Source: Flavobacteriaceae bacterium
GTDB lineage: Bacteria > Bacteroidota > Bacteroidia > Flavobacteriales > Flavobacteriaceae
Length of the DNA: 32,000 nucleotides
Direction of reading: 5' to 3'
Assembly: GCA_965224465.1 (NCBI GenBank)
Contig: OZ245049.1
Span: 2,070,001-2,102,000 of the forward strand
This document shows, in pieces, positions 5,542-30,700 of the stretch. Each line of letters begins with the position of its first letter. Within the stretch, counting starts at the first letter, position 1. The notes under the pieces are model-generated. The model was not told the origin of the DNA, made no database searches, and saw only the letters and a program-made list of their open reading frames with translations. The translations under genes and the position numbers were made by a program.

Positions 5542-5609
5542 CAGGTAACTCCTTGGTATTACTTGGTTTTAATAGTGATATTTCAGCTTAAAAAGCGTAT
5601 CTTTCTACT

Positions 5610-7200: not shown

Positions 7201-8778
7201 TTAATTCAAAACATCTGGGTTTAAAATCACAAACTCTGTCCTCCTATTCAATTGATGCTCTGATTCCGAACACTCAACGCCATTTGAGCAATGATTTGTC
7301 AATACTTCTTCTCCGTATCCTTTTCCTGAAATCCTATGAGTAGCTATCCCATGATTTGTGATATATCTAACTGTAGAAGAAGCTCTTCTGGTTGATAAAT
7401 TAAGATTATAAACATCATTCCCCCTTGCATCTGTATGTGAGCCAGACTCAATAATTAATGTTGGGTATTTTTTCATTACAGCAATCACTTTATTTAATTC
7501 ATACGCTGCATCTATACGAATTTGAGCATCGTCAAAGTCAAAATAAATAGGATTTATATTTATCAACAATTTGTCGCCTACATTCACAAATTCATTCATT
7601 TCAAGAACTAAATTTACTGTAATACCATTAGTATCGGAAGCTAAAAAGTACTTCTCAGTTGTTTCATACGGTTCTTTAGTTGCCGTTAAATGATAATTAT
7701 CTTCACAATTAATAACAAAATCAAACCATCCATAAACATCTGTTTCAACTTCCTTAAGAACTACACCTGCTTCACTTTTTAAAACAACAACAGCTCCCTG
7801 AACAGGTTTAAATGTAATTTTATCCATCACTTTCCCTTTCACATATTGCGTACATTCTTCTATTACTGGAGGAATAAGTTCAAAATAATAAATATCATCA
7901 CTTCCTTCCCCGCCTGCTCTATTGCTCGAAAAATAACCTGTAATTAATTCGGAGCCTGTATTTGTCTTTAAAAAAGAAAAATCATCTGAAATGCTATTTA
8001 AAGCCCTTCCCAAGTTTACAACTTTATTATTGTCTTGCCCTGAGATAACAACTCGATACATATCTAAGCCACCAAAATTCTCTTGCTGTCCATTCGAAGA
8101 AAAAAACAATTCGTTCCCATTTACAGATGGAAACATTTCCTTTTTCAAAGTATTAATTAACGGACCTAAATTTATAGGAACTCCATAGGTATCATTTCCT
8201 TCTAACTGAACCTTCCAAATATCTGTCTGTCCAATTCCGCCAGGCATATCTGAGGTAAAATACATCACTGTTTCTTCTTTATTTAAAGCCGGATGACCTA
8301 CAGAATACGCATCACTATTAAATGGAAGCTCCATAATATTATCCCATATTCCATCAGATGAAATACTAGCTTTGTAAATTTTTAAATTACTCCATCCATT
8401 TTTATCTCTTCTTTTTCTTCCTTTTAACATGTTATTTCGTGTAAAATACACTGTTTGTCCATCTTTGGTAAAAACGGCATTAGACTCGTGCAACTTCGTG
8501 TTTATTTTTTCTGACAATGACGAATAACTCCCTATCACACTGTCCTTCACTACCATTTCCTTATACAAATTCAAATAAGGTTGATTGTTTCTTTTCCATT
8601 TTTTACCACCTCCTTTTGCAGAGGTATACACTGCTTCTCTTTCGGCATTAAATGACAAGCCAAAATCAGAATATTTTGTATTCAAGGATAAGTTTTCAAT
8701 ACGATATACAGGCAGCTCTTTTTCTTGCCCTATCATTAGAGAAGAAATTAAGAATATTAAGGATACTATCTTTTTCAT
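7201..8778 (-). CDS. OmpA-family protein with PD40 (TolB-like beta-propeller) repeats, a CarboxypepD_reg-like domain and a C-terminal OmpA_C peptidoglycan-binding domain (PorE-like architecture), 525 aa
   Basis: Signal peptide MKKIVSLIFLISSLMIGQ with no lipobox Cys. Four PD40-like motifs: FTKDGQTVYFTRNN, EETVMYFTSDMPGGIGQTDIW, NGNELFFSSNG...GGLDMY and GYFSSNRAGGEGSDDIYYFE. CRD-like segment: VKGKVMDKITFKPVQGAVVVLKSE...TDVYGWFDF. OmpA_C block: NPIYFDFDDAQIRIDAAYELNKV...IESGSHTDARGNDVYNLNLSTRRASSTVRYI...GKGYGEE...NRRTEFVI. Confidence 0.9.
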   Translation of the reverse strand: MKKIVSLIFLISSLMIGQEKELPVYRIENLSLNTKYSDFGLSFNAEREAVYTSAKGGGKKWKRNNQPYLNLYKEMVVKDSVIGSYSSLSEKINTKLHESNAVFTKDGQTVYFTRNNMLKGRKRRDKNGWSNLKIYKASISSDGIWDNIMELPFNSDAYSVGHPALNKEETVMYFTSDMPGGIGQTDIWKVQLEGNDTYGVPINLGPLINTLKKEMFPSVNGNELFFSSNGQQENFGGLDMYRVVISGQDNNKVVNLGRALNSISDDFSFLKTNTGSELITGYFSSNRAGGEGSDDIYYFELIPPVIEECTQYVKGKVMDKITFKPVQGAVVVLKSEAGVVLKEVETDVYGWFDFVINCEDNYHLTATKEPYETTEKYFLASDTNGITVNLVLEMNEFVNVGDKLLININPIYFDFDDAQIRIDAAYELNKVIAVMKKYPTLIIESGSHTDARGNDVYNLNLSTRRASSTVRYITNHGIATHRISGKGYGEEVLTNHCSNGVECSESEHQLNRRTEFVILNPDVLN

Positions 8779-8793
8779 AATTTATATTTTTTT

Positions 8794-9717
8794 TTAAAAG
8801 AATCTAGGACTACGAACTTCCATACGACGCACATCAAACAAAAGCATTATTTCATGGGAACCACTATTATAATTCCCTAAATCAGACAAGGTATAATCAT
8901 AAGCATAGCCCAAACGAACATCCGGACTAATATTAAAGCCAACCATGGCACTTACAGAATCGTCCAAACGATACGAAAGCCCAAACTCTAATTTAGAGTA
9001 TATCAATGCATTTACAGACAAATCTATAGAGACTGGAGCTCCAAACGTAGCCTTAACCATTACTGACGGTTTTAAGTCTAGTGACTCTGAAATCTCAAAA
9101 ACATATCCCGAAGTCAAAAAATAATGTGCGGTTTCATTTGCGTTACTAACATACCCCTTTTTATCTTTATAGTACTTTGATTTTAAGATATTTGGAACTG
9201 ACAATCCTATATAATACTTGGACGTATAATAAAAAACTCCGACTCCAAAATTGGGAGACAATTTGTTTTCTCCTGCATTTATCAATAACTGATCATCGGG
9301 ATCTAAGGTAAATAGTAAGTCTCTATTGATAACATGAGAGGTAACACCTCCTTTTACCCCAAAGGCTAATTTTGAAAAATCCGTTACATCTATTGTATAA
9401 GAAAAATCCACGAAAATATTACTCTCTTTTACAGGTCCCAATTGATCATAGACCACCGACAGTCCCAATCCTACATTTTTCTTAAAAGGAGCATGGATAG
9501 AAAACGTAGCTGTTTCTGGCGCTCCATCTATCCCTACCCATTGCGTACGCCCCAAGAAGTTAATACTCAATGTTTCTCTAGCCCCTGCATAGGCTGGATT
9601 CAAGACATTCATGTGGTACATGTATTGTGTCGCCTGAATGTCTTGCTGACTGTAAAGCATCCCACTAAACATTAGTAGTACACTTAAAATTAAGTTTATC
9701 TTTTTCATGTTTTTCAT
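8794..9717 (-). CDS. Type IX secretion system membrane protein, PorP/SprF family (307 aa)
   Basis: Signal peptide followed by the family-defining N-terminal block QQDIQATQYMYHMNVLNPAYAG, compared with the consensus QQDPQFSQYMFN.L..NPAYAG. The rest has a beta-barrel-like alternating pattern and ends ...SPRFF. The size and the position immediately downstream of a type-B-CTD cargo gene are typical. Met1 or Met4 could be the true start. Confidence 0.9.
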   Translation of the reverse strand: MKNMKKINLILSVLLMFSGMLYSQQDIQATQYMYHMNVLNPAYAGARETLSINFLGRTQWVGIDGAPETATFSIHAPFKKNVGLGLSVVYDQLGPVKESNIFVDFSYTIDVTDFSKLAFGVKGGVTSHVINRDLLFTLDPDDQLLINAGENKLSPNFGVGVFYYTSKYYIGLSVPNILKSKYYKDKKGYVSNANETAHYFLTSGYVFEISESLDLKPSVMVKATFGAPVSIDLSVNALIYSKLEFGLSYRLDDSVSAMVGFNISPDVRLGYAYDYTLSDLGNYNSGSHEIMLLFDVRRMEVRSPRFF

Positions 9718-9731
9718 TTGTATATTTAATC

Positions 9732-9756
9732 ATAGGAAAGAATAATCCTTCCCTAT
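9732..9756 (-). other. Intercistronic RNA stem-loop between the giant gene and the porP/sprF gene (possible processing or stability element; not a canonical terminator)
   Basis: The minus-strand RNA AUAGGGAAG-GAUUAUU-CUUUCCUAU forms a 9-bp stem with one G-U pair and a 7-nt loop. No U-tract follows it. It lies within the 52-nt gap 9718..9769. Confidence 0.3.
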
Positions 9757-9769
9757 AAGAACTATCATT

Positions 9770-12700
9770 TTACTCGTTTATATAAATCCATGCTGCTATC
9801 CCTTCTGTTTTTCCATCATTGAAATTTAAAATATAATAATAAGTACCTGTTGAAACTTTCTGACTAGAACCTATTGTCATCTCACCACTAGAATAACCAT
9901 CCCACCATCTTGGACTTGCTTTTTTATCCCCATTGTGATGGTAACTGTAAATAATATTCCCCCATCTGTTATAAATTTTTAATTCAAAATCAGGGTGTAA
10001 TTCCACTAAGTTTTCAATTTTAAACACATCATTCACACCATCATTATTAGGCGTAAACACCGTTGGAATAACAAGCTTATTATTCTCTTCCCCATTTGGA
10101 ATTCCATCTCCATCACAATCAGCAATCGCCCATTCATCAGATTGAAGTTCCGTAATATTCACTTCTAAATAATCACAAAAATCATTTGGATCGGTGCCAT
10201 CAATTGCTTCTTGTCCATCTGTGACTCCATCTCCATCCGAATCTATATTATTTGGATCCGTCTTATTTCCGTTTGGATTTGCAGGCGTACTAGGATCGTC
10301 TATTCCTGTAGATTCCTCTGCATTGGTCAAGCCATCAGCATCACAATCTGCAACTAACCAGTCGCCTCCTTGAGTTTCCGTAACGCTTATTAGCGTATAA
10401 TCACATAGATCATTTGGATCGGTACCATCAATCGCTTCCTGTCCATCTGTGACTCCGTCTCTATCCGAATCTATATTATTTGGATCCGTCTTATTTCCGT
10501 TTGGATTGGCAGGCGTACTAGGATCGTCGATTCCTGTAGACTCCTCTGCATTGGTCAAGCCATCACTATCACAATCTGCTGTCAACCAATTCCCAGTCTG
10601 GGTTTCTGTAATCCTTGCAGTTATATAATCACAAGAGTCATTTGGATCGGTAGCTTCTGAATCTATTTTTGTATCCGACCCATCAAGTACCTCTTGCGCA
10701 TCCGTAACTCCATCTCCATCGGTATCTTTCTTGTTTGGATCTGTTGTGTTTCCGTTTGGATTTGCAGGCGTGCTTGGATCGTCGACGCCTGTGGTTTCTT
10801 CGCCATTGGTCAAACCATCACTATCACAATCTGCTGTCAACCAATTTCCTGCTTGGGTTTCTGTGATGCTTGCTACTGTCAAGGCACATGGGTCGTTTGG
10901 ATCTGTGCCATCTGTGGCCTCTTTTCCGTCCGTAACTCCATCTCCATCCGTATCACTCTTGTTTGGATCTGTTGTATTTCCGTTTGGATTTGCAGGGGTG
11001 CTTGGATCGTCGACGCCTGTGGTTTCTTCGCCGTTGGTCAAGCCGTCCGAGTCACAGTCTACTGTCAACCAATTTCCTGCTTGCGTTTCTGTAATACTTG
11101 CCGCTGTCAATGCACATGGATCGTTTGGATCTGTGCCATCTGTGGCTTCTTTTCCGTCCGTAACTCCATCTCCATCGCTATCTTTCTTGTTTGGATCTGT
11201 TGTATTTCCGTTTGGATTTGCAGGCGTGCTTGGATCATCGACTCCCGTGGTTTCTTCGCCATTGGTCAGTCCGTCCGAGTCACAATCTACTGTCAACCAA
11301 CTTCCTGCTTGGGTTTCTGTAATGCTTGCAACTGTCAATGCACATGGATCGTTTGGATCTGTGCCATCTGTGGCTTCTTTTCCGTCCGTAACTCCATCTC
11401 CATCGCTATCTTTCTTGTTTGGATCTGTTGTATTTCCGTTTGGATTTGCAGGCGTGCTTGGATCGTCGACGCCTGTGGTTTCTTCGCCATTGGTCAGTCC
11501 GTCCGAGTCACAATCTACTGTCAACCAACTTCCTGCTTGGGTTTCTGTAATGCTTGCAACTGTCAATGCACATGGATCGTTTGGATCTGTGCCATCTGTG
11601 GCTTCTTTTCCGTCCGTAACTCCATCTCCATCGGTATCTTTCTTGTTTGGATCTGTTTTGTTTCCATTTGGATTTGCAGGCGTGCTTGGATCGTCTATTC
11701 CAGTCGTTTCTTCACCATTGGTCAGTCCGTCCGAGTCACAATCTGCTGTCAACCAATTTCCAGACTGGGTTTCTGTGATGCTTGCCGCTGTCAAGGCACA
11801 TGGGTCGTTTGGATCCGTGCCATCTGTGGCTTCTTTTCCATCTGTAACTCCATCTCCATCCGTATCTTTCTTGTTTGGATCTGTTGTATTTCCGTTTGGA
11901 TTCGCAGGCGTGCTTGGATCGTCGATTCCTGTGGTTTCTTCGCCGTTGGTCAAACCGTCCGAATCACAGTCTACTGTCAACCAATTTCCTGATTGGGTTT
12001 CTGTGATGCTTGCTACTGTCAAGGCACATGGATCGTTTGGATCTGTGCCATCTGTGGCCTCTTTTCCGTCCGTAACTCCATCTCCATCCATATCTTTCTT
12101 GTTTGGATCTGTTGTGTTTCCATTTGGATTCGCAGGAGTGCTTGGATCGTCGACGCCTGTGGTTTCTTCGCCGTTGGTCAAGCCGTCCGAATCACAGTCT
12201 ACTGTCAACCAATTTCCTGATTGGGTTTCTGTGATGCTTGCTACTGTCAAGGCACATGGATCGTTTGGATCTGTGCCATCTGTGGCTTCTTTTCCGTCCG
12301 TAACTCCATCTCCATCGGTATCTTTCTTGTTTGGATCTGTTGTGTTTCCGTTTGGATTTGCAGGCGTGCTTGGATCGTCTATTCCAGTCGTTTCTTCACC
12401 ATTGGTCAGTCCGTCCGAATCACAATCTGCTGTCAACCAATTTCCAGACTGGGTTTCTGTGATGCTTGCCGCTGTCAATGCACATGGGTCGTTTGGATCT
12501 GTGCCATCTGTAGCCTCTTTTCCGTCTGTAACTCCATCTCCATCGGTATCACTCTTACTTGGATCTGTTGTGTTTCCGTTTGGATTTGCAGGCGTGCTTG
12601 GATCGTCGACACCTGTAGTTTCTTCGCCGTTGGTTAGTCCGTCTCCATCACAATCTACTGTCAACCAACTTCCTGCTTGCGTTTCTGTGATACTTGCTAC

Positions 12701-15700
12701 TGTCAATGCACATGGATCGTTTGGATCTGTGCCATCTGTGGCCTCTTTTCCGTCCGTAACTCCATCTCCATCGGTATCTTTCTTGTTTGGATCTGTTGTA
12801 TTTCCGTTTGGATTTGCAGGCGTGTTTGGATCGTCGATTCCTGTGGTTTCTTCGCCATTGGTCAAGCCGTCTCCATCACAATCTGCTGTCAACCAATTTC
12901 CTGCTTGGGTTTCTGTGATGCTTGCTACTGTCAACACACATGGATCGTTTGGATCTGTGCCATCTGTGGCTTCTTTTCCGTCCGTAACTCCATCTCCATC
13001 GGTATCTTTCTTGTTTGGATCTGTTTTGTTTCCATTTGGATTTGCAAGGGTGCTTGAATCGTCGACGCCTGTGGTTTCTTCACCATTGGTCAGTCCGTCT
13101 CCATCACAATCTACTGTCAACCAACTTCCTGCTTGCGTTTCTGTGATGCTTGCTGCTGTCAATGCACATGGATCGTTTGGATCTGTGCCATCTGTAGCCT
13201 CTTTTCCATCTGTAACTCCATCTCCATCGGTATCTTTCTTGTTTGGATCTGTTGTGTTTCCGTTTGGATTTGCAGTGGTGCTTGGATCGTCAATACCTGT
13301 GGTTTCTTCACCATTGGTCAGTCCGTCTCCATCACAATCTGCTGTCAACCAACTTCCTGCTTGGGTTTCTGTGATGCTTGCCGCTGTCAATGCACATGGA
13401 TCGTTTGGATCTGTGCCATCTGTGGCCTCTTTTCCATCTGTAACTCCATCTCCATCGGTATCTTTCTTGTTTGGATCTGTTGTGTTTCCGTTTGGATTTG
13501 CAGGCGTGCTTGGATCGTCGACACCTGTAGTTTCTTCGCCGTTGGTTAGTCCGTCTCCATCACAATCTACTGTCAACCAACTTCCTGCTTGCGTTTCTGT
13601 GATACTTGCTACTGTCAATGCACATGGATCGTTTGGATCTGTGCCATCTGTGGCCTCTTTTCCGTCCGTAACTCCATCTCCATCGGTATCTTTCTTGTTT
13701 GGATCTGTTGTATTTCCGTTTGGATTTGCTGGCGTGCTTGGATCGTCGATTCCTGTGGTTTCTTCGCCGTTGGTTAGTCCGTCTCCATCACAATCTGCTG
13801 TCAACCAATTTCCATACTGGGTTTCTGTGATGCTTGCCGCTGTCAATGCACATGGATCGTTTGGATCTGTGCCATCTGTGGCCTCTTTTCCGTCCGTAAC
13901 TCCATCTCCATCGGTATCTTTTTTGTTTGGATCTGTTGTGTTTCCGTTTGGATTTGCAAGCGTGCTTGGATCGTAGATTCCTGTGGTTTCTTCACCATTG
14001 GTTAGTCCGTCCGAGTCACAATCTGCTGTCAACCAACTTCCTGCTTGGGTTTCTGTGATGCTTGCTACTGTCAATGCACATGGGTCGTTTGGATCTGTGC
14101 CATCTGTGGCCTCTTTTCCATCCGTAACTCCATCTCCATCCGTATCACTCTTGTTTGGATCTGTTGTATTTCCGTTTGGATTTGCAGGGGTGCTTGGATC
14201 ATCGATTCCTGTGGTTTCTTCGCCGTTGGTCAAACCGTCACTATCACAATCTGCTGTCAACCAATTTCCTGCTTGGGTTTCTGTGATGCTTGCCGCTGTC
14301 AATGCACATGGATCGTTTGGATCTGTGCCATCTGTGGCCTCTTTTCCGTCCGTAACTCCATCTCCATCCGTATCTTTTTTGTTTGGATCTGTTGTATTTC
14401 CGTTTGGATTTGCAGGCGTGCTTGGATCGTCGATTCCTGTGGTTTCTTCACCGTTGGTCAGTCCGTCCGAGTCACAATCTGCTGTCAACCAATTTCCTGC
14501 TTGAGTTTCTGTGATGCTTGCTACTGTCAAGGCACATGGGTCGTTTGGATCTGTGCCATCTGTGGCTTCTTTTCCGTCCGTAACTCCATCTCCATCGGTA
14601 TCTTTCTTGTTTGGATCTGTTGTGTTTCCGTTTGGATTTGCAGGGGTGCTTGAATCGTCGACCCCTGTGGTTTCTTCTCCATTGGTCAGTCCGTCTCCAT
14701 CACAATCTGCTGTCAACCAATTCCCTGCTTGCGTTTCTGTGATACTTGCTACTGTCAATGTACATGGATCGTTTGGATCTGTGCCATCTGTGGCTTCTTT
14801 TCCGTCCGTAACTCCATCTCCATCCGTATCTTTTTTGTTTGGATCTGTTGTATTTCCGTTTGGATTTGCAGGGGTGCTTGGATCGTCGATTCCTGTGGTT
14901 TCTTCTCCGTTGGTCAAACCGTCTCCATCACAATCTGCTGTCAACCAATTCCCTGCTTGCGTTTCTGTAATACTTGCTACTGTCAATGCACATGGATCGT
15001 TTGGATCCGTGCCATCTGCAGCTTCTTTTCCATCTGTAACTCCATCTCCATCAGTATCACTCTTGTTTGGATCTGTTGTATTTCCGTTTGGATTTGCAGG
15101 CGTGCTTGGATCGTCGACTCCTGTGGTTTCTTCACCATTGGTCAATCCGTCCGAGTCACAATCTGCTGTCAACCAATTTCCTGCTTGAGTTTCTGTGATG
15201 CTTGCTACTGTCAATGCACATGGGTCGTTTGGATCTGTGCCATCTGTGGCTTCTTTTCCATCTGTAACTCCATCTCCATCGGTATCTTTCTTGTTTGGAT
15301 CTGTTGTGTTTCCATTTGGATTCGCAGGCGTGCTTGGATCGTCGATTCCTGTGGTTTCTTCGCCGTTGGTTAGTCCGTCCGAGTCACAATCTACTGTCAA
15401 CCAACTTCCTGCTTGCGTTTCTGTGATGCTTGCCGCTTTCAATACACATGGATCGTTTGGATCTGTGCCATCTGTGGCTTCTTTTCCGTCCGTAACTCCA
15501 TCTCCATCGGTATCACTCTTGTTTGGATCTGTTGTGTTTCCGTTTGGATTTGCAGGGGTGCTTGAATCGTCGACCCCTGTGGTTTCTTCTCCATTGGTCA
15601 GTCCGTCTCCATCACAATCTGCTGTCAACCAACTTCCTGCTTGCGTTTCTGTGATGCTTGCCGCTGTCAATGCACATGGATCGTTTGGATCTGCTTGCGT

Positions 15701-18700
15701 TTCTGTGATGCTTGCCGCTGTCAATGCACATGGATCGTTTGGATCTGTGCCATCTGTAGCCTCTTTTCCATCTGTAACTCCATCTCCATCGGTATCTTTC
15801 TTGTTTGGATCTGTTGTGTTTCCGTTTGGATTTGCAGGGGTGCTTGAATCGTCGACCCCTGTGGTTTCTTCTCCATTGGTCAGTCCGTCTCCATCACAAT
15901 CTACTGTCAACCAATTTCCTGATTGGGTTTCTGTGATGCTTGCTACTGTCAAGGCACATGGATCGTTTGGATCTGTGCCATCTGTGGCTTCTTTTCCGTC
16001 CGTAACTCCATCTCCATCGGTATCTTTCTTGTTTGGATCTGTTGTATTTCCGTTTGGATTTGCTGGCGTGCTTGGATCGTCGATTCCTGTGGTTTCTTCG
16101 CCGTTGGTCAAGCTGTCCGAGTCACAATCTGCTGTCAACCAATTTCCTACTTGAGTTTCTGTGATGCTTGCTACTGTCAATACACATGGATCGTTTGGAT
16201 CTGTGCCATCTGTGGCTTCTTTTCCATCTGTAACTCCATCTCCATCGGTATCTTTCTTGTTTGGATCTGTTTTGTTTCCATTTGGATTTGCAGGAGTGCT
16301 TGGATCGTCGATACCTGTGGTTTCTTCACCATTGGTCAAACCGTCTCCATCACAATCTGAAGTCAACCAACTTCCAGACTGCGTTTCGGTGATGCTTGCT
16401 ACTGTCAATACACATGGATCGTTTGGATCTGTGCCATCTGTGGCTTCTTTTCCGTCCGTAACTCCATCTCCATCGGTATCTTTTTTGTTTGGATCTGTTG
16501 TATTTCCGTTTGGATTTGCAGGGGTGCTTGGATCGTCGATTCCTGTGGTTTCTTCTCCGTTGGTCAAACCGTCTCCATCACAATCTGCTGTCAACCAACT
16601 TCCTGCTTGCGTTTCTGTGATGCTTGCCGCTGTCAATGCACATGGATCGTTTGGATCTGTGCCATCTGTGGCCTCTTTTCCGTCCGTAACTCCATCTCCA
16701 TCGGTATCTTTCTTGTTTGGATCTGTTGTGTTTCCGTTTGGATTTGCAGGGGTGCTTGAATCGTCGACCCCTGTGGTTTCTTCTCCATTGGTCAGTCCGT
16801 CTCCATCACAATCTGCTGTCAACCAATTCCCTGCTTGGGTTTCTGTGATGCTTGCCGCTGTCAATGCACATGGATCGTTTGGATCTGTGCCATCTGTAGC
16901 CTCTTTTCCATCTGTAACTCCATCTCCATCGGTATCTTTCTTGTTTGGATCTGTTGTATTTCCGTTTGGATTTGCAGGCGTGCTTGGATCGTCGACACCT
17001 GTAGTTTCTTCGCCGTTGGTTAGTCCGTCTCCATCACAGTCTGCTGTCAACCAATTTCCAGACTGGGTTTCTGTGATGCTTGCTACTGTCAAGGCACATG
17101 GATCGTTTGGATCTGTGCCATCTGTGGCTTCTTTTCCATCTGTAACTCCATCTCCATCCGTATCTTTTTTGTTTGGATCTGTTGTATTTCCGTTTGGATT
17201 TGCAGGGGTGCTTGGATCGTCAATTCCTGTGGTTTCTTCTCCGTTGGTCAAACCGTCTCCATCACAATCTGCTGCCAACCAATTCCCTGCTTGGGCTTCT
17301 GTGATGCTTGCTACTGTCAAGGCACATGAGTCGTTTGGATCTGTGCCATCTGTAGCCTCTTTTCCGTCTGTAACTCCATCTCCATCGGTATCACTCTTAC
17401 TTGGATCTGTTGTGTTTCCGTTTGGATTTGCAGGCGTGCTTGGATCGTCGATTCCTGTGGTTTCTTCGCCATTGGTTAGTCCGTCTCCATCACAATCTGC
17501 TGTCAACCAATTTCCTGATTGGGTTTCTGTGATGCTTGCTACTGTCAATACACATGGATCGTTTGGATCCGTGCCATCTGTGGCTTCTTTTCCATCTGTA
17601 ACGCCATCTCCATCGGTATCTTTCTTGTTTGGATCTGTTGTATTTCCATTTGGATTTGCAGGGGTGCTTGGATCATCGACACCTGTGATTTCTTCGCCGT
17701 TGGTCAAACCGTCCGAGTCACAATCTGAAGTCAACCAATTTCCAGACTGGGTTTCTGTGATGCTTGCTACTGTCAATGCACATGGATCGTTTGGATCTGT
17801 GCCATCTGTGGCTTCTTTTCCGTCCGTAACTCCATCTCCATCGGTATCTTTCTTGTTTGGATCTGTTGTGTTTCCGTTTGGATTCGCAGGCGTGCTTGGA
17901 TCGTCGATTCCTGTGGTTTCTTCTCCATTGGTTAGTCCGTCCGAGTCACAATCTGCTGTCAACCAATTTCCTGCTTGGGTTTCTGTGATGCTTGCTACTG
18001 TCAAGGCACATGGATCGTTTGGATCTGTGCCATCTGTGGCTTCTTTTCCGTCTGTAACTCCATCTCCATCCGTATCTTTTTTGTTTGGATCTGTTGTGTT
18101 TCCGTTTGGATTCGCAGGCGTGCTTGGATCGTCGATTCCTGTGGTTTCTTCTCCATTGGTTAGTCCGTCCGAGTCACAATCTGCTGTCAACCAATTTCCT
18201 GCTTGGGTTTCTGTGATGCTTGCTACTGTCAAGGCACATGGATCGTTTGGATCTGTGCCATCTGTGGCTTCTTTTCCGTCCGTAACTCCATCTCCATCGG
18301 TATCTTTCTTGTTTGGATCTGTTGTGTTTCCGTTTGGATTTGCAGGCGTGCTTGGATCTTCGATTCCTGTGGTTTCTTCTCCATTGGTCAAACCGTCCGA
18401 GTCACAATCTGAAGTCAACCAACTTCCTGCTTGCGTTTCTGTGATACTCGCCGCTGTCAATGCACATGGATCGTTTGGATCGGTGCCATCTGTGGCTTCT
18501 TTTCCGTCCGTAACTCCATCTCCATCGGTATCACTCTTATTTGGATCTGTTATATTTCCGTTTGGATTTGCAGGCGTGTTTGGATCGTCGACACCTGTGG
18601 TTTCTTCGCCATTGGTCAAGCCGTCCGAGTCACAATCTGCTGTCAACCAATTTCCAGACTGGGTTTCTGTGATGCTTGCCGCTGTCAATGCACATGGGTC

Positions 18701-21700
18701 GTTTGGATCTGTGCCATCTGTAGCCTCTTTTCCGTCCGTAACTCCATCTCCATCCGTATCTTTTTTGTTTGGATCTGTTGTATTTCCGTTTGGATTTGCA
18801 GGCGTGCTTGGATCGTCGATTCCTGTGGTTTCTTCTCCATTGGTCAGTCCGTCTCCATCACAATCTGCTGTCAACCAACTTCCTGCTTGCGTTTCTGTGA
18901 TGCTTGCCGCTGTCAATGCACATGGATCGTTTGGATCTGTGCCATCTGTAGCCTCTTTTCCATCTGTAACTCCATCTCCATCGGTATCTTTCTTGTTTGG
19001 ATCTGTTGTGTTTCCGTTTGGATTTGCAGGCGTGCTTGAATCGTCGACCCCTGTGGTTTCTTCACCATTGGTCAGTCCGTCTCCATCACAATCTGCTGTC
19101 AACCAATTCCCTGCTTGGGTTTCTGTAATGCTTGCAACTGTCAATGCACATGGATCGTTTGGATCCGTGCCATCTGTGGCTTCTTTTCCATCTGTAACGC
19201 CATCTCCATCGGTATCTTTCTTGTTTGGATCTGTTGTATTTCCATTTGGATTTGCAAGGGTGCTTGAATCGTCGACCCCTGTGGTTTCTTCACCATTGGT
19301 CAGTCCGTCTCCATCACAATCTACTGTCAACCAACTTCCTGCTTGCGTTTCTGTGATGCTTGCCGCTGTCAATGCACATGGATCGTTTGGATCTGTGCCA
19401 TCTGTAGCCTCTTTTCCATCTGTAACTCCATCTCCATCGGTATCTTTCTTGTTTGGATCTGTTGTGTTTCCGTTTGGATTTGCAGGCGTGCTTGGATCGT
19501 CTATTCCAGTCGTTTCTTCACCATTGGTCAGTCCGTCCGAGTCACAATCTGCTGTCAACCAATTTCCAGACTGGGTTTCTGTGATGCTTGCCGCTGTCAA
19601 TGCACATGGGTCGTTTGGATCTGTGCCATCTGTAGCCTCTTTTCCGTCCGTAACTCCATCTCCATCCGTATCTTTTTTGTTTGGATCTGTTGTATTTCCA
19701 TTTGGATTGGCAGGCGTGCTTGGATCGTCGATTCCTGTGGTTTCTTCACCATTGGTTAGTCCGTCCGAGTCACAATCTGCTGTCAACCAATTTCCAGACT
19801 GGGTTTCTGTGATGCTTGCCGCTGTCAATGCACATGGGTCGTTTGGATCTGTGCCATCTGTGGCTTCTTTTCCGTCCGTAACTCCATCTCCATCGGTATC
19901 TTTCTTGTTTGGATCTGTTGTATTTCCGTTTGGATTTGCAGTGGTGCTTGGATCGTCAATACCTGTGGTTTCTTCACCATTGGTCAGTCCGTCTCCATCA
20001 CAATCTGCTGTCAACCAACTTCCTACTTGGGTTTCTGTGATGCTTGCCGCTGTCAATGCACATGGATCGTTTGGATCCGTGCCATCTGTGGCTTCTTTTC
20101 CATCTGTAACGCCATCTCCATCGGTATCTTTCTTGTTTGGATCTGTTGTATTTCCATTTGGATTTGCAGGGGTGCTTGGATCATCGACACCTGTGATTTC
20201 TTCGCCGTTGGTCAAACCGTCCGAGTCACAATCTGAAGTCAACCAATTTCCAGACTGGGTTTCTGTGATGCTTGCTACTGTCAATGCACATGGATCGTTT
20301 GGATCTGTGCCATCTGTGGCTTCTTTTCCGTCCGTAACTCCATCTCCATCGGTATCTTTCTTGTTTGGATCTGTTGTATTTCCGTTTGGATTTGCAGGCG
20401 TGCTTGGATCGTCGACGCCTGTGGTTTCTTCGCCATTGGTCAGTCCGTCCGAGTCACAATCTACTGTCAACCAATTTCCAGACTGGGTTTCTGTGATACT
20501 TGCTACTGTCAATGCACATGGATCGTTTGGATCTGTGCCATCTGTGGCTTCTTTTCCGTCCGTAACTCCATCTCCATCGGTATCTTTCTTGTTTGGATCT
20601 GTTGTGTTTCCGTTTGGATTTGCAGGCGTGCTTGGATCGTCGACACCTGTAGTTTCTTCGCCATTGGTCAAGCCGTCTCCATCACAATCTGCTGTCAACC
20701 AGTTTCCTGTTTGCGTTTCGGTGATGCTTGACGCTGTCAATGCACATGGATCGTTTGGATCTGTGCCATCTGTAGCTTCTTTTCCGTCTGTAACTCCATC
20801 TCCATCGGTATCACTCTTATTTGGATCTGTTGTATTTCCGTTTGGATTTGCAGGCGTGCTTGGATCGTCGACGCCTGTGGTTTCTTCGCCGTTGGTCAGT
20901 CCGTCCGAGTCACAATCTGCTGTCAACCAATTTCCAGACTGGGTTTCTGTGATACTTGCTACTGTCAATGCACATGGATCGTTTGGATCTGTGCCATCTG
21001 TGGCTTCTTTTCCGTCCGTAACTCCATCTCCATCGGTATCTTTCTTGTTTGGATCTGTTGTGTTTCCGTTTGGATTTGCAGGCGTGCTTGGATCATCGAC
21101 GCCTGTGGTTTCTTCACCATTGGTCAAGCCGTCTCCATCACAATCTGAAGTCAACCAACTTCCAGACTGCGTTTCTGTGATGCTTGCTACTGTCAATGCA
21201 CATGGATCGTTTGGATCTGTGCCATCTGTGGCTTCTTTTCCATCTGTAACTCCATCTCCATCAGTATCTTTTTTGTTTGGATCTGTTGTGTTTCCGTTTG
21301 GATTTGCAGGCGTGCTTGGATCGTCGATTCCAGTCGTTTCTTCACCATTGGTCAGTCCGTCCGAGTCACAATCTGCTGTCAACCAATTTCCAGACTGGGT
21401 TTCTGTGATGCTTGCCGCTGTCAATGCACATGGGTCGTTTGGATCCGTGCCATCTGTGGCTTCTTTTCCATCTGTAACTCCATCTCCATCCGTATCTTTC
21501 TTGTTTGGATCTGTTGTATTTCCGTTTGGATTTGCAGGCGTGCTTGGATCGTCGATTCCTGTGGTTTCTTCACCATTGGTTAGTCCGTCCGAGTCACAAT
21601 CTGAAGTCAACCAACTTCCTGCTTGGGTTTCTGTGATGCTTGCCGCTGTCAATGCACATGGATCGTTTGGATCTGTGCCGTCAAGTACTTCTTGTGCATC

Positions 21701-24700
21701 AGTAACTCCATCTCCATCGGTATCTATTATCACAATAGCAGCTACAGCAATTTGAATATTTGCAGTTGCAAGACCGCCAGCAACATCCTTAATTTCGTAG
21801 GAAAAACTTACAGACCCCACATAATTAGCATCAGGAATAAAACTGATTGTACCATTCGTCGCTACCTCAACTGTTCCATTTGTTACAGGTATTGTTTGTA
21901 CAATACTAGGGGTTAACGTAACAGCATTTATAGAAAACACAGATACAACACCTCCTGTAGCAGACTCCGAATCATTCCCTAAAGGTGTTAATATAATGGA
22001 TATATCTTGATTTGTGGTATAGGCATCATCTACTGCAATCGGTAATATAAGGGTTAACTTTGTTTGATTTTCTTGCGTACAATAACTACTTGGATGTGAC
22101 ACAATCACCTTATACACATTATCTACCATTGTAGCATTGACAAGGGCTAAAATTAAATTTTCACCTGTTTCCGCAGGAGAAAAATCGACAAAACCACTCC
22201 CTGTATCCACTTGCCAATTATATGTAAGCGAAGCTGTATCATCTGTATAATCAGGCACACCATTGCTAAATGTAGTAGCTACTTGGGCAGAAGCCCCAGC
22301 AGACAAAGTTAAGGTAGTTAATCCAGTAATATCCGTGGTCGTACCCAGGACAGTATTTATTGTTATCTTAGCAGCTGACAAAGCACTAGCCGTATACGTT
22401 GAGGTATAATTTATAGTACTTGAAGTTCCACTCTCAAAACCATCCAACAAACCATTAGAATTAACATCAGCACCTGTATTGTAATTTACAACATCATTTG
22501 TAGATGTACCTGTAGTTGATGCTTCCATTGAATCTGAACAACCATCGTTATCTGAATCTAGATCTAAATAATCAGGAACCCCATCTCCATCGGTATCTTT
22601 CTCACCACTACATGGGACTGTAAAATACTCTAAAATAGACATCTCAACTCCAAACCCATCCGAACCAAGAATTTGACCTTGGTGAAAATTAAGATCTATC
22701 AACATTGGGTTAATAGCTGTAATCGAAGAAAAATCATTAAATACCATTCCCCAAAAAGCAGTATCCGCTGGATTATAATGATTATCCGCAGTCCAATTTG
22801 AAGGCGTTAAGTCCCAATCATAATAGGTTCCTTCTCCTTCTTTTAATATAGTTCCAGGAAGAATCTCATCACTATCTGTTAAACCTTGAATATTACCATC
22901 TTGAGCATCTGGATAATTTTGATAAATAGCATTACCTACATTCGTAGAAATAATCTCCCAAGAAGAATAATTTGAATTTGCAGTTCCCGAAGGAGATCTA
23001 TAAAAACGATAATCTAGACCTTCATCAAAATAAACACCATTTCTAGGGATAAATTCTAACTTAAATAAATAAGTAGCTTTAAGAGCACTACCACTCCCAT
23101 AAACTATTCGCATTCCTACTTTATTACCATTTTGCATACTAGCCACAGATCTTAGAAAATTTTGTGGATCATCAATTCTTAATTGACCTAAGACAGTTCC
23201 TGTTCCTAAATCTGTAATATCAGACTCCCAAGCAGTTCCGTTTTTAACAGTTACAGATTGCGCTAAAGAAGATACAGCTAGCCCATCTCCAGAAGCACAG
23301 TAATACATTTCATCTTTATCTAAAATACCATCATTATCATCATCTATATCCACCAAATCTTTTATGCCATCGCTATCTACATCCGCACACAGACTTAAGA
23401 AATCCGACTGTGCATATTTCAAATAGGTAGAGGTATAGTTTAGCTTCCCTGAATCGGCAGATGTTTCTACACTATCTTCCAAACCATTGACACCAACATT
23501 GGCCGCTGGAAAAGCAAAATTTACTGTCTCATCCGTGGTTGCCCCTGCTTCGAGAGCATCTGAACAACCATCGTTGTCTGAATCAGAATCTAAGTGATTA
23601 TAGATTCCATCACCATCCGTATCTGCATCACAATTAGGTTTCGGATAATCCTGCGGATCAAAACCAGCTTCATCAATCAGCAATTCTAATTCTCCATAGC
23701 CATTCGAATACGTTGTACCAGAAACACCTAACAAGCGGTAATATTTATAAACAGCACTGTTTTGAGTTACAGCAAACACATCTTCGTCAGGAATAGGATT
23801 TGTGATATGTGTACTACTGGTATTTAGGTCTATCCACGTATTATCATCGTTACTTCCTTGTAAAGTAAGTACTCCATTATTAAAAAACCCATACGTACTG
23901 GCGTAATTAAACTTCAAACTTTCCAGCTCTAATGCGTTTGCTAATTCTACTTTATAAACTTCTTTTCCAGCGATGGCTTGTGAATTATTAAACCTTGGAT
24001 TGCTCGCTGTTGTTTTTACTCCATCGATAGAACTCTCTATTGGATTTGTTGCATAGGTTAGCATTTCTGAACTCACGACAAAACCATCTACAGTACTTCG
24101 GTCTCCCGTTAGCGGAAGATCACTTATCGTATAATAACAATTCGGTGACTCTACAACATCTAAAACACCATCATTATCATCATCTATATCTACCAAATCT
24201 TTTATACCATCGCTATCTGTATCCGCACATAGACTTAAGAAATCTGATTGTGCATATTTCAAATATGTAGAGGTGTAGTTTACCTCCCCAGAATCGGCAG
24301 ATGTTTCTATACTATCTTCCAATCCATTGACACCAACATTGGTCGTTGGAAAAGCAAAACCTGTAGTTTCGTCTGTGGTTGCACCAGCTTCAAAAGCATC
24401 TGAACAACCATCGTTGTCTGAATCAGAATCTAAATGGTTATAGATTCCATCACCATCTAGATCATCTGCACAGACTGCTTTCGGAAAATCATGTGTATTA
24501 AAACCAACCATCGTAGGTGATATTTCGTACACCCTATTGTAGTATGTTTTTCCTGAAACCCCTAGAATCCTATATTTACTATAGACATCTCCTGTCTGAT
24601 TAAAACTATAGGTATTGGTTCCGTTTACACCTTGAGTCTCAGACAAATTACCCGTTACGCTTACCCAGTCCGTTCCATTAAATGCTTGCCACTTAAACAC

Positions 24701-27700
24701 TGCAGCCGTTTGAAACATACTATAATTATAAACCACAGACATTTGCGTTAATTCTACAGGGAATTCAAGTGTTACTTCATAAACTGCCTCCCCTGTAATA
24801 TCGGTTCCATTGACACCATAAGCAGCCATATTATCTAAAACTCCATCGTATAACTCGGTAAAAGAATTGGCAGCACTTGTACTGTAATTTGTCAATGTTG
24901 TTGTGACGTCTTTTATTTTTACATCATCTATTGAATAATAACAATTTGGTGATTCTACAACATCTAAGACACCATCATTATCATCATCTATATCTACCAA
25001 ATCTTTTATACCATCATTATCTGTATCCGCACACAGACTTAAGAAATCCGACTGTGCATATTTCAAATATGTAGAGGTATAGTTTACCTTCCCTGAATCA
25101 GCAGTTATTTCTACACTATCTTCCAAACCATTGACACCAACATTGGTTGTTGGAAAAGCAAAATCTACTGTCTCATCCGTGGTTGCCCCTGCTTCGAGAG
25201 CATCTGAACAACCATCGTTGTCGGAATCAGAATCTAAGTGATTATAGATTCCATCACCATCCGTATCTGCATCACAATTTGTTTTCGGAAAATCGTGCGG
25301 ATCAAAACCAGCTTCATCAATCAGCAATTCTAATTCTCCATAGCCATTCGAATACGTTGTACCAGAAACTCCCAACAAGCGGTAATATTTATAGACCGCA
25401 CTGTTTTGAGTTACAGCAAACACATCTTCGTCAGGGATAGGATTTATTGTATGTGTACTACTTGTATTTAAATCTACCCATGTACTATCATCGTTACTCC
25501 CTTGCAAAGTAAGTACTCCATTATTAAAAAAACCATACGTACTTGCGTAATTAAACTTCAAACTTTCCAGTTCTAATGCGTTTGGTAATTCTACTTTATA
25601 AACTTCTTTTCCTGCGATGGCTTGTGAATTATTAAACCTTGGATTACTCGCTATTGTTTTTACTCCATCAATAGAACTCTCTATTGGATTTGCCGCATAG
25701 GTTAGCATTTCTGAACTCACAACAAAACCACTTACAGCACTTCGGTCTCCCGTTAGCGGAAGATCACTTATCGCATAATAACAATTCGGAGATTCTACAA
25801 CATCTAAAACACCATCATTATCATCATCTATATCTACCAAATCTTTTATGCCATCGCTATCTGTATCCGCACACAGACTTAAAAAATCTGATTGTGCATA
25901 TTTCAAATATGTAGAGGTGTAGTTTACCTCCCCAGAATCGGCAGAGGTTTCTATACTATCTTCCAAACCATTGACACCAACATTGGTCGTCGGAAAAGCA
26001 AAATCTACTGTCTCATCCGTGGTTGCACCAGCTTCAAAAGCATCAGAACAACCATCATTATCTGAATCAGAATCTAAGTGATTGTAGATTCCATCACCAT
26101 CTAGGTCATCTGTACAGACTGCCTTTGGAAAATCATGTGCATTAAAATCAACCATCGTAGGTGATATTTCGTACACCCTATTGTAGTATGTTTTTCCTGA
26201 AACCCCTAGGATTCTATATTTACTATAGACATCTCCTGTCTGATTAAAACTATAGGTATTGGTTCCGTTTACACCTTGAGTTTCAGACAAATTACCCGTT
26301 ACGCTTACCCAGTCCGTTCCATTAAATCCCTGCCACTTAAACACTGCAGCCGTTTGAAACATACTATAATTATAAACCACAGACATTTGCGTTAACTCTA
26401 CAGGAAATTCAAGTGTTACTTCATAAACTGCCTCCCCTGTAATATCGGTTCCATTGACACCATAAGCAGCCATATTATCTAGAACTCCATCATATAACTC
26501 GGTAAAAGAATTGGCAGCACTTGTACTGTAATTTGTTAATGTTGTTGTGGCGTCCTTTATTTTTACATCAGCTATTGAATAATAACAATTCGGTGATTCT
26601 ACAACATCTAAGACACCATCATTATCATCATCTATATCTACCAAATCTTTTATACCATCATTATCTGTATCCGCACACATACTTAAGAAATCCGACTGTG
26701 CATATTTTAAATATGTAGAGGTATAATTTAGTTTCCCTGAATCGGCAGATGTTTCTACACTATCTTCCAAACCATTGACACCCAAATTGGTAGTTGGAAA
26801 AGCAAAATCTACTGTCTCATCCGTAGTTGCCCCTGCTTCAAAAGCATCTGAACAACCATCACCATCTGAATCTAAATCTACATGGTTGTAAATGCCATCA
26901 TTATCTAGATCATCTGAACAGGTGTTTTTGGGAAAATCGTGCGGATCAAAACCAGCTTCATTAATCAGCAATTCTAATTCTCCATAGCCATTCGAATACG
27001 TAGTCCCAGAAACACCTAACAAGCGGTAATATTTATAGACTGCACTGTTTTGAGTTACAGCAAACACATCTTCGTCAGGAATAGGGTTTGTTGTATGTGT
27101 ACTACTTGTATTTAAATCTACCCATGTACTATCATCGTTACTTCCCTGCAAAATAAGTACTCCGTTATTAAAAAACCCATACGTACTGGCATAATTAAAC
27201 TTCAAACTTTCCAACTCTAATGCGTTTGGTAATTCTACTTTATAAACTTCTTTTCCTGCGATGGCTTGCGAATTATTAAACCTTGGATTACTCGCTGTTG
27301 TTTTTACTCCATCAATAGAACTCTCTATTGGATTTGCCGCATAGGTTAGCATTTCTGAACTCACAACAAAACCACTTACAGCACTTCGGTCTCCCGTTAG
27401 CGGAAGATCACTTATCGTATAATAACAATTCGGTGATTCTACAACATCTAAAACACCATCATTATCATCATCTATATCTACCAAATCTTTTATACCATCA
27501 TTATCTGTATCCGCACATAGACTTAAGAAACCCGACTGTGCATATTTCAAATATGTAGAGGTGTAGTTTACCTCCCCAGAATCGGCAGAGGTTTCTACAC
27601 TATCTTCCAAACCATTGACACCAACATTGGTCGTTGGAAAAGCAAAATCTGTAATTTCGTCTGTGGTTGCTCCAGCTTCAAAAGCATCTGAACAACCATC

Positions 27701-30700
27701 ATTATCTGAATCAGAATCTAAGTGATTGTAGATTCCATCACCATCTAGATCATCTGTACAGACTGCTTTTGGAAAATCATGTGCATTAAAATCAACTATA
27801 GTAGGTGATATTTCGTACACCCTATTGTAGTATGTTTTTCCTGAAACCCCTAGGATTCTATATTTACTATAAACATCTCCTGTCTGATTAAAACTATAGG
27901 TACTGGTTCCGTTTACACCTTGATTTTCAGACAAATTACCCGTTACGTTTATCCAGTCCGTTCCATTAAATGCTTGCCACTTAAACACTGCAGCCGTTTG
28001 AAACATACTATAATTATAAACCACAGATATTTGCGTTAACTCTACAGGAAATTCAAGTGTTACTTCATAAACTACCTCCCCTGTAATATTGGTTCCATCT
28101 ACACCATAAGCAGCCATATTATCTAAAACTCCATCGTATAACTCGGTAAAAGAATTGGCAGCACTTGTACTGTAATTTGTCAATGTTGTTGTGGCGTCTT
28201 TTATTTTTACATCAGCTATTGAATAATAACAATTTGGTGATTCTACGACATCTAAAATACCATCATTATCATCATCTAAATCCACATCATCCATAATACC
28301 ATCACCGTCTGTATCAACTGAAGGAAAAACAATCCCTATTGGATCTTTAATCTCTCCTCCTACAGTACTTTCATCTCCCGCTTCGCCATCAGTTAATGTA
28401 TAGCTCAGGACAGGCACATTTAGCCCTCCAATTAACTCAGAAGAAATAGCGAAATTTTTTGTAGTATAACTCGCATCATTTGCTCCAGGAATGGAAGACC
28501 CAAATTTACGAATGAGATCAATAGAAGTAGATCCATGCCAATATAATTTAACAGCAACAGATTCTCCAGGGTTGTTACACTCCACGGTATAGTTTAACAA
28601 ACCAAAAGGATAATCATAGGCACTGTCAAGTTGCCCTACTTCGTTTTCTAACAATCCGTCTATCTGAATAATTTTATTACAAGTAGCACTTGTAATTTCA
28701 AGTGTTATATAAGATTTCCCTAGAGCATCTTCTAAAGAAGCAACATTCCCTTGTGCAGAATCTAGTGTTCCGTCTCCATTACCATCCCCATTATTAGGTC
28801 CCGCATCTTCTACAGAAGCACTTATTCCATCTCCATCGTCTGTTAAACACTGTTTTATTACTGGGTCTATTACATTTGCATAGGTTGCAATATAATTTGG
28901 AATCCCATCGTTATTCAAATCTACAGCATCTACTAGTCCATCATTATTCGTATCTGCTCCCGTAAATTGATAATCAACTTCCAACTTTGTAGTAGCACCT
29001 GATTCATACGCATCCGAACAACCGTCACCATCAGAATCTAAATCTAAATGATTTGGAATTGTATCATTATCTATATCGCTATCACAACTAACTGAGATCC
29101 CTCCATGTATCCTCCCAGGCAACCAACCATGTGTAAAATTCACAAAGGCTAGCCCTGTATATTCTATTTTTGTAACTTTTAAATCAGAGGCGTCAAAGCT
29201 TATATATTTACCCGCTTGTAAATTTGGAGCAATTGCATAGGTTGACATTAAGCCATAGGTATTATCTTGAACCAACTGAGATCCCGCTTCCCCTAAAGCC
29301 AATCCGTTTTTATCTACAAACCTAGTACCCCAACCATTTGCATTATTATACACAAGCGTGGTTCCGTCTATCAAAGTAACTTTAAACTCACTAATTGACT
29401 CATGTGGCCCCGAAGGCTCAAAATCGCTCCACCTATAGATCAGACCTTCAATATAAAACGGATTTCCTGTACCTGTTTCTGTAAAAGTAATTGTTTGCGT
29501 AGTTCCTGTTGAAGCCCTAGAATAATAACCATCAGCACTACTAGCTATCCCAGAAATAGCAGGACTAAAACGAACGTCAAAAGAAGCTCCCGAACTTAGA
29601 ACAAAAGGTCCTTGAGTAGCTGTAGAAGACATCGCAACTTTTCCCAAAGACACATTGGTTGAAGCAGCTGTTTCAAAATTAGCCAATTCTCCCCTTGATA
29701 GAGAAACACCTCCTAGGCATTCATCAACATCTAAAATCCCATCATTATCATCATCTATATCTAAGACATCACCTATACCATCATTATCAGAATCCGCACA
29801 AGCGTTTAAGCCTGCTGAAATAGCAATGCTATAATCTAAGGTATAATTAATGGTTCCTGTTGCCCCATTTTCAAATTGATCTAGCAATCCATTATTATTA
29901 AGATCTACCCCTGTATTATAATTTACACTATCATTGTTTGACGCCAAAACCACTCCTACTTCTACACTATCCGAACATCCATCGCCATCAGAATCTAAAT
30001 CTAGATGGTTTGGAATCCCATCACTGTCGGTATCTGGACAAGTAAAAATTGGATTATTTAAAGCTGCTACCGCAGAAACATTAATAGACCACCAATATTC
30101 TCCTATATTAACATTAAAAGAAAAAGCACTTACCTCTGTATTTATTAACTTTATAGAACCTTCCATGTAAGACCCTATATTATAAGCTACATCTGTAGTT
30201 TCGTTAACATGTAAATTTGTTCCACCTGCTCCTCCTGCAAACACCTTTTCAATATCAGTATTAAAAGTAGCTTTCATTGCTTGTGCTCCAGCTCCAAAAG
30301 ACCAAAAATGTACATGAGGCATATATATTGGTTCGGAGAATGTTAACGTATAAGTTCCCGCTTTATCTAATTGAGGAATAAAACTACTAAAAGGCTTACC
30401 ATCTGGTTTAGGGCAAAATTGTGCATTAGAACTTTGCCAATAATTATAAGTAGTAGCACGTGTTCCTACAGGAGCCTCTAAAGTAACCGTTATTGTTCTA
30501 TCTAACATTACCATTTCACCAGTATAAATAGTCCCTGATTGAGATTTCCAATCAATAAAAGTCTGTTTGTTTGCTAAAGGAGCACATTCCCCTACCTCTT
30601 CAGCGGGAGGACATTCATCCTTATCTAAAATCCCATCATTATCATCATCTATATCTGTAATATCTAAAACACCATCGCCATCTGTATCGACACAATTAGG

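Follow-up and report, generated by a model that had tools for sequence, protein, structure and literature searches.

Shuffled unit differences in a 48-unit TSP3-type repeat array of a predicted giant surface protein from a Flavobacteriaceae bacterium

The giant gene and its repeat array

The DNA considered here is a window of 32,000 nucleotides (nt) from the genome of a Flavobacteriaceae bacterium (assembly GCA_965224465.1, contig OZ245049.1, positions 2,070,001 to 2,102,000), and its principal occupant is a giant gene, for a predicted surface protein, that contains a tandem array of 48 units built on bacterial thrombospondin type 3 (TSP3) motifs. The differences among these units are shuffled from unit to unit in a manner that points to recombination within the gene under purifying selection. 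All coordinates are positions within the window; the units are numbered R1 to R48 from 21724 downward, along the minus strand, and the features are collected in Table 1.

Table 1. Features of the window and the evidence on which each was assigned
Feature	Positions	Strand	Evidence
Giant gene for a predicted surface protein (5' end beyond the window)	9770..31999	-	Open reading frame list, translation
48-unit array	10727..21724	-	Tandem Repeats Finder (TRF), translation, Pfam
Three degenerate terminal units, R49-R51	10070..10726	-	Translation; TSP3_bac 56.3 bits
Exact in-frame 54-nt internal duplication in R27	15637..15747	-	TRF period 54, 2.1 copies, 100% matches; script; translation
C-terminal type IX secretion system (T9SS) type B sorting domain (CHU_C)	9779..10069	-	PF13585, TIGR04131
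Ig-like domain (Big_9 / Cadherin_5), directly N-terminal to the array, head residues 3320-3417	21749..22042	-	PF17963, 47.3 bits
Six large head repeats, head residues ~1250-2900	~23300-28300	-	
PorP/SprF-like outer-membrane protein gene	8794..9717	-	PF11751, 288.7 bits
PorE-like gene with PD40 beta-propeller repeat, carboxypeptidase-regulatory-like and OmpA domains	7201..8778	-	Pfam
IS66-family element	5200-7073	+	TnpB-like Orf2; DDE transposase with all four IS66 domains
Start of a second giant gene (continues beyond the window)	3-4436	-	

Followed in the whole genome, the giant gene has an open frame of 8,044 residues, or about 8,034 codons counted from its first ATG, and the 48 units make up some 3,670 of these residues (~46%). 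It is the only long frame through the array and stays open across all 11 kb. Plus-strand open reading frames of up to 1,864 residues also run antisense through the array (10694-21755); their Pfam matches lack a single passing stretch, and we therefore rejected them as genes and treat them as by-products of a repeat that has no stop codons in those frames. TRF returned a period of 228 nt with 50.3 copies over 10181..21725, and the minus-strand translation resolves 48 in-phase units of 228 nt, or 76 residues, from R1 (21724..21497) to R48 (10954..10727). A first-pass annotation, made from the letters of the window, had counted 48 units of 228 bp over this same span, and both TRF and translation confirm it for every unit except R27 (15515..15796), which measures 282 nt and encodes 94 residues. 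The exact duplication within R27 adds 18 residues by repeating the first cysteine together with the end of the first TSP3 motif before it and most of the loop after it, leaving this unit with three cysteines; it looks very recent, because its copies are 100% identical.

Each unit consists of a bacterial TSP3 motif, a 19-residue loop bracketed by two cysteines, a second TSP3-like motif and a PNGN tail. The TSP3_bac profile (PF18884), 22 residues long, scores 99.5 bits in five stretches on four units against a cut-off of 25. At the two edges of the array the opening variant AQEVLDG is common to R1 (21677-21724) and to the first degenerate unit, R49 (10679-10726); the first 51 nt of these two differ at 7 positions, compared with 10 between R1 and the array's majority sequence. 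This shared opening suggests that the 47 units between the two were expanded inside one ancestral unit. R1 is also the most isolated unit, 20 nt from its nearest relative. When two units were used as a DNA query against the whole genome, the repeat was found only inside the giant gene, save for matches of 26 and 35 nt (E ~1e-4).

How might such a protein reach and hold the cell surface? The sorting domain lies at its extreme C-terminus and scores 85.7 bits with PF13585 (cut-off 27) and 45.4 bits with TIGR04131 (cut-off 35). The PorP/SprF-like frame shares the strand of the giant gene and starts 52 nt downstream of its stop codon, and beyond it lies a gene that we label PorE-like from a domain make-up that we take to be that of PorE. 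SprA (TIGR04189), the only T9SS component searched for, is present in the same genome at 2535.7 bits, above its cut-off. In PMC9143113, proteins whose C-terminal domain (CTD) is of type B associate with PorP-like proteins, a complex of PorE, PorP and type B cargo is described, and SprF is bound to SprB. By analogy, the PorP/SprF-like protein is the presumed anchor of the type B CTD. Given the TSP3_bac, CHU_C and TIGR04131 matches, the PorP/SprF-like and OmpA/PD40 neighbours and the presence of SprA, we read the giant gene as encoding a T9SS-exported, PorP-anchored giant surface protein, both its secretion and its anchoring being predictions from these features. SprB and other type B cargo share with it the C-terminal type B domain, the adjoining PorP/SprF-like and then PorE-like genes, and SprA in the genome; the likeness is one of gene context, and a 48-unit array and this repeat type do not figure in the part of PMC9143113 used here.

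Differences among the units and their recombination

The first-pass annotation described the units as near-identical, with differences confined to about a dozen sites. At the DNA level they are not near-identical: 76 of the 228 sites vary, 47 of the 48 units are distinct (R7 and R18 are the sole identical pair), and two units differ on average by 20.0 nt, which corresponds to 91.2% identity and to one difference every 11 nt. Variation reaches 43 of the 76 third codon positions and never touches the other 33, and many variable sites stand near 50:50. The encoded units have a mean identity of 93.3% with at most 12 differences in 76 residues, and they comprise 40 distinct proteins; those that are identical as proteins differ in DNA, again with the exception of R7 and R18. 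Substitutions occur at 26 residues, 17 of them recurrently (in at least two units), and 50 residues are fixed, among them the acidic residues of the TSP3 motif, which are invariant in 48 of 48 units.

The detail of the earlier description fared better than its summary. All eleven variable sites that it listed exist with the residues given, although the list omits positions 2, 14, 54, 58, 61 and 74. The alternation written as LT[A/V]AS is position 27, with alanine in 21 units and valine in 27; QAGS, QAGN, QSGN and QSGS all occur; and DDSST is accompanied by GDG and VDD in seven of seven units. The sets of protein duplicates (R2=R9=R10=R41, R16=R17=R32, R7=R18, R13=R23 and R6=R42) are correct and complete. 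Three alleles were likewise rightly recognised at TQ[A/S]G, CAA-GCA in 27 units, CAG-TCT in 13 and CAA-TCA in four, and the doublet change of CAG-TCT does travel as a unit, nt 102 (G) and nt 105 (T) being completely linked (r2 = 1.00).

All four gametes are seen at 874 of the 1,225 pairs formed by 50 informative sites (71%), and the Hudson-Kaplan Rm is 27 within 228 nt. Because synonymous sites can mutate repeatedly, the test was also run on eight multi-nucleotide alleles that differ at 2-4 nt and therefore cannot recur by mutation: 20 of their 28 pairs show all four combinations, some between blocks only ~6 nt apart. Mean r2 is 0.42 between sites 1-3 nt apart, 0.069 at 4-9 nt and 0.023 beyond 120 nt, and past 3 nt it continues to fall with distance (Spearman -0.16, permutation p = 0.001). 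Coalescent simulations tuned to the observed diversity, in which 76 sites underwent recurrent two-state mutation and no recombination took place, never gave a mean r2 below 0.083 in 120 runs, compared with 0.034 observed. Some linkage does remain, because of recent copying: the codon-level index of association is 0.62, and the observed variance (Vobs 15.05) exceeds that of all 500 shuffles.

The recent copying is visible as exact tracts. The longest in-phase exact matches measure 319, 259, 209 and 200 nt, have both of their ends inside units and join units 1-14 apart. Tracts of at least 100 nt number 67, against a mean of 6.4 and a maximum of 17 in 200 shuffles that preserve short-range linkage, and there are four of at least 200 nt, against none in the same shuffles. 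In the 319-nt case, the DNA from R6:208 to R8:70 matches R17..R19, 11 units away, amid surrounding units that differ, from which we infer a converted patch and not a block duplication.

Could the same pattern have arisen without exchange, if the units were amplified in one old burst and each then mutated on its own under protein constraint? Such a history would account for the high synonymous divergence (0.32; see below), for the fact that protein-identical units mostly differ in DNA (eight units lost to protein identity, as against a single DNA-identical pair) and for a similarity that is almost independent of position, and recurrent mutation alone can yield many four-gamete pairs of single sites. 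It founders on the multi-base alleles, since those of the codon 44-45 and codon 34-35 blocks are each carried by 13-29 units, in all combinations, and the same multi-base change cannot arise independently 13-29 times. Exact tracts of 200-319 nt between units that usually differ at 20 positions per 228 nt, the decay of linkage with distance, and the many sites near 50:50 beside 33 third positions that are invariant also speak against it, and we regard a burst without exchange as extremely unlikely.

Exchange appears to take little account of distance along the array. Adjacent units differ by 19.3 nt, all pairs by 20.0 and units more than 30 apart by 20.8 (Mantel rho 0.07, p = 0.03), and no offset is prominent in the mean differences that would indicate a higher-order periodicity. 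Nearest relatives are dispersed, as in the pairs R2-R44, R10-R41, R8-R37 and R11-R38, and some neighbours are only 3-4 nt apart. These figures bear on a further proposal, that synonymous heterogeneity is kept by selection in order to protect an 11-kb repeat from recombinational collapse. An array that is less alike in DNA (91%) than in protein (93%), with 43 variable third positions, a difference between any two units every 11 nt on average, and a persistence long enough to accumulate its synonymous divergence, is what such recoding would produce. Yet long identical tracts are in excess rather than in deficit, adjacent units differ no more than distant ones do, the frequency spectrum lies close to neutrality (see below), and neither the adjacent-unit differences nor the long tracts give any sign of selection against similar neighbours. 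The same facts are explained if neutral mutation is held in balance by infrequent conversion, and selected recoding is in our view improbable.

An array in another genus, whose genome (G108) is complete, offers a comparison. It consists of 10 units that share the 76-residue architecture, at 87% identity (locus L055, which is G108:C1:246000-262000, at 7700-10150), and it is organised in a two-unit higher-order pattern, with 19.0 differences at offset 2 and 34.2 at offset 1; four-gamete pairs amount to 36% there, compared with 71% in the 48-unit array. Every G108 unit is at least 64 of 228 nt away from every unit of the 48-unit array, within which the mean is 20. Such closeness within arrays is what concerted evolution, or independent expansion, leaves behind in each lineage. 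The claim of the first-pass annotation that tracts are copied within a recombining population of cassettes is therefore upheld by the four-gamete violations, abundant both for single sites and for multi-nucleotide alleles, by the decay of linkage, the long tracts and the simulations, and by the distance to G108; of its two candidate processes, gene conversion and unequal exchange, copying as such is supported and the choice between them is taken up below.

Tandem families are known to evolve in concert by gene conversion and unequal exchange, a matter of general population-genetic theory. The present array conforms in that its units are closer to one another than to those of another genus, its edge units are the most divergent (R1, and the degenerate R49-R51) and its tracts are mosaic. 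It departs from the usual picture in that homogenisation is weak and exchange is nearly independent of distance, with linkage decayed within less than 10 nt and a mixing more thorough than in the dimer-structured array of G108.

Could the way the units are ordered, their count or their mosaic composition be the work of an assembler in a tangled repeat graph? Most draft assemblies are broken by such arrays, and in many related loci the contig stops within the array. The present genome, in contrast, is one contig of 5.24 Mb with 99.99% completeness, and the frame is open over 11 kb. The read comparison covered eight units and the flank, and depth inside the array cannot be taken as a copy number. 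In the two runs of organism A, unitigs lie on R1-R8 and differ little from it (285 and 154 are at least 99% identical), and in each run a contig of ~1.76 kb spans the junction of head and array with 0 differences. The shuffling takes place over 4-30 nt, presumably below any assembly word length, and therefore could not be created by an assembler. We consider an assembly artefact very unlikely.

Selection on the unit and its Cys-bracketed loop

Divergence was estimated by the method of Nei and Gojobori over all 1,128 pairs of units. Overall, synonymous divergence (dS) is 0.324 and nonsynonymous divergence (dN) 0.036, a dN/dS of 0.11; the loop alone gives 0.20, the rest of the unit 0.085 and the first TSP3 motif 0.037. 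Purifying selection thus acts throughout the unit, and the loop is its least constrained part, about twice as permissive as the rest and still constrained. The common replacements are conservative (A/V, A/S, N/S, I/V and S/G), and S29, I30, T31, W38 and both cysteines never vary. Positions that vary in the array are those that vary in the family, since in 135 related modules of other genomes the corresponding columns have a mean entropy of 1.86 bits, against 0.99 bits for positions invariant in the array (p = 0.007). Tajima's D is +0.6 from segregating sites and -0.4 from mutation counts; values so near neutral mean that there is no excess of balanced alleles.

According to the first-pass annotation, variation lies mostly in the loop between the two cysteines, as expected of a displayed, diversified loop on an invariant calcium-binding scaffold. 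By count this is not so. The loop, with 19 of the 76 positions, holds five of the 17 recurrent variable sites (Fisher p = 0.75); a second test of loop enrichment among variable positions gave p = 0.18, and in a chi-square test over four segments of the unit the p values were 0.54 (all variable sites) and 0.25 (recurrent sites). Judged by weight, 48% of pairwise residue differences do fall in the loop (25% of positions), and four of the six most polymorphic residues (27, 35, 37 and 41) belong to it. Variable sites are, then, spread uniformly along the unit at the nucleotide level and by protein count, which refutes the loop part of the earlier proposal alone and leaves its conversion part untouched.

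What would a ligand- or antigen-facing loop look like if selection favoured many versions of it, with conversion generating the combinations? A dN 2.2 times higher in the loop than outside (0.063 and 0.028) and the concentration of residue differences at those four residues would fit, as would the variability of positions 35-37 in the arrays of L012 and G108 as well, and the loop is also the part that diverges most between genera. An excess of amino-acid-changing variation, the hallmark of antigenic variation or diversification, is nonetheless absent: dN/dS within the loop is, like that outside it, far below 1, and the ratio of nonsynonymous to synonymous states is alike within the loop (14:16) and outside it (26:44; p = 0.38). 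Counts show no enrichment, the replacements are small as well as conservative, S29-T31, W38 and both cysteines are fixed, and synonymous sites, which are the majority of the variable DNA sites, show the same shuffling. The two-unit genome query described above revealed no silent donor copies outside the expressed gene, and the reverse transcriptase and template repeat of a diversity-generating retroelement were not searched for. Loops diversified for display are accordingly a quite improbable explanation. The combinatorial protein variants are a by-product of shuffling, not a diversification device.

We put at about 0.8 the probability that the array is the long stalk of a giant surface protein, made of weakly homogenised units among which patches are copied under purifying selection, with the shuffling of variants as a by-product. 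The PorP/SprF-like and PorE-like proteins, whose genes follow immediately downstream, would hold the giant protein on the outer membrane, and the 48 TSP3-type units, predicted to bind calcium, would project the heterogeneous N-terminal head domains off the cell. At the DNA level the analysis shows misaligned homologous recombination within the gene repeatedly patching one unit from another irrespective of their location in the array, the recent patches being some 100-320 nt long and starting and ending anywhere. As such patches accumulated they brought old point differences, mostly synonymous, close to linkage equilibrium, while purifying selection holds 50 of the 76 residues fixed and restricts replacements to the least constrained columns.

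Several points weigh against this interpretation. In the simulations without recombination, overlap with the data was seen for two weaker statistics, the four-gamete fraction, which reached 0.73 in one setting against the 0.71 observed, and the variance of pairwise differences, which reached 19.8 against 23.1; part of the site-wise four-gamete count is therefore owed to recurrent synonymous mutation. One genome does not suffice to separate gene conversion fully from unequal crossing-over with subsequent loss. The order and number of the units are those of a single assembly, the public runs offering only unitigs of 60-145 nt inside the array. Calcium binding, the rod shape and surface anchoring are predicted from family membership and gene neighbourhood.

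A stronger version of the same idea takes the array as a nearly panmictic population of 48 cassettes, in which distance-independent exchange over 11 kb is common enough, compared with the gain and loss of units, to erase linkage beyond ~10 nt and yet too rare to homogenise the synonymous sites. We find this rather doubtful in so strong a form. If it were true, and proved both stable and general in the long TSP3 stalks of Flavobacteriaceae, a single genome would record the spectrum of tract lengths and the relative rate of intragenic conversion in Bacteroidota, and the maintenance of an 11-kb repeat at 91% identity might reflect a selected balance between a uniform protein and resistance to collapse.

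Head region, relatives and comparable systems

The head of the giant protein is heterogeneous. Pfam and NCBIfam identify FG-GAP-like, choice-of-anchor U and Ig-like domains in it, and a hydrophobic stretch at the N-terminus, taken from the first ATG, was judged by eye only. The six large head repeats have ~270-280 residues each and are of two alternating types. In this same region, cysteine pairs right beside TSP3-like motifs bracket inserts of ~59 and ~157-169 residues. The 19-residue loop of the stalk occupies the same kind of position and is a short loop, not a domain; given this bracketing in the head, it may be the empty or minimal form of a Cys-bracketed insertion site. In G108 the head region contains four repeats of 333 residues, each of which starts with the same 76 residues.

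For the C-terminal part, relatives are closest in Olleya and Mesoflavibacter (62% identity), with others in Nonlabens, Winogradskyella and further Flavobacteriaceae. A second related genus (G287) has about six units of the same 76 residues; orthology of the G108 and G287 arrays is not established. Four genomes of the same genus, 62-82% complete, gave no array with a two-unit protein query, and in the wider family 8 of 400 other genomes match at E <= 1e-30, none of them as a close orthologue. Related loci often have a period of 41 residues that comprises the first TSP3 motif and the Cys-bracketed segment only, so that the 76-residue unit can be described as that module plus a second, Cys-free TSP3-like motif and the tail. 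A metagenome run from marine sediment (X1) contains a relative whose unique flank differs by ~3% (13 letters of 430 and 7 of 221, within 21835-22500), together with array-like words and no array structure, and on this sequence evidence a close relative with a similar stalk exists in the environment.

To what known fold could the unit be compared? Eukaryotic thrombospondin type 3 repeats are calcium-binding, with Asp-rich DxDxDG-type motifs, cysteine pairs and calcium-dependent folding. The present units share the Asp-rich DxDxDG-type motifs with interspersed cysteine pairs, calcium-dependent folding is predicted for them too, and the Pfam name TSP3_bac points in that direction; the likeness is one of motif, and no significant match to a solved thrombospondin or COMP chain was obtained. 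A PDB sequence search with one protein gave no match, and with a profile only EF-hand proteins at E 0.35-1. An AlphaFold model of a 58-residue module (unit residues 1-58, window positions 18131-18304, minus strand), built from an alignment of 136 modules, has a predicted local distance difference test score (pLDDT) of 97.0; it places a short helix after each Asp-rich loop and another at NWLT within the Cys-bracketed segment. Against the PDB, Foldseek found nothing for this model at E <= 0.001 and a wide VIA-align search found no chain at Z >= 2, and the bacterial TSP3/Cys module therefore appears to be without a solved representative. A three-unit model from a 13-row alignment was unusable (pLDDT 43.4).

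The closest architectural parallel is with the periscope proteins of bacterial surfaces, in which long tandem repeats of high similarity make up stalks of variable length and which were detected by repeats of more than 50 residues at more than 80% identity (PMC8201768). Like them, the present protein is a giant with heads at one end and an anchor, here a predicted one, at the other, its 76-residue units at 93.3% mean protein identity are within those limits, and its DNA similarity permits recombination within the gene. Unlike them, it would be anchored by a T9SS type B CTD and belongs to Bacteroidota, a group for which the main text of PMC8201768 has no word beginning with 'Bacteroid'; its repeat is a TSP3-type unit of putative calcium-binding motifs and not the Ig-like, SHIRT or G5-E type; and its DNA identity is only 91%, with the differences thoroughly shuffled. 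The periscope type of architecture would thereby be extended to a T9SS-anchored giant protein of marine Flavobacteriaceae with a TSP3-type stalk. The process is a known one, and neither a new mechanism nor a new system is proposed; what the array provides is a clear case of near-complete shuffling inside one gene, and its 48 units and 50 informative sites form a clean natural data set for the lengths of conversion tracts in a bacterial gene. It also illustrates that combinatorial protein variants in a repeat stalk need not amount to a diversity device, being in this instance (nearly) neutral polymorphism mixed by conversion. A literature search at the level of titles and abstracts found no description of conversion within a TSP3 stalk, which is not proof that none exists.

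Two further features of the window lie beyond the PorE-like gene. The second giant gene is without a Pfam match at E <= 0.001 over its first 1,478 residues. The IS66-family element lies between the start of this gene and the PorE-like gene.

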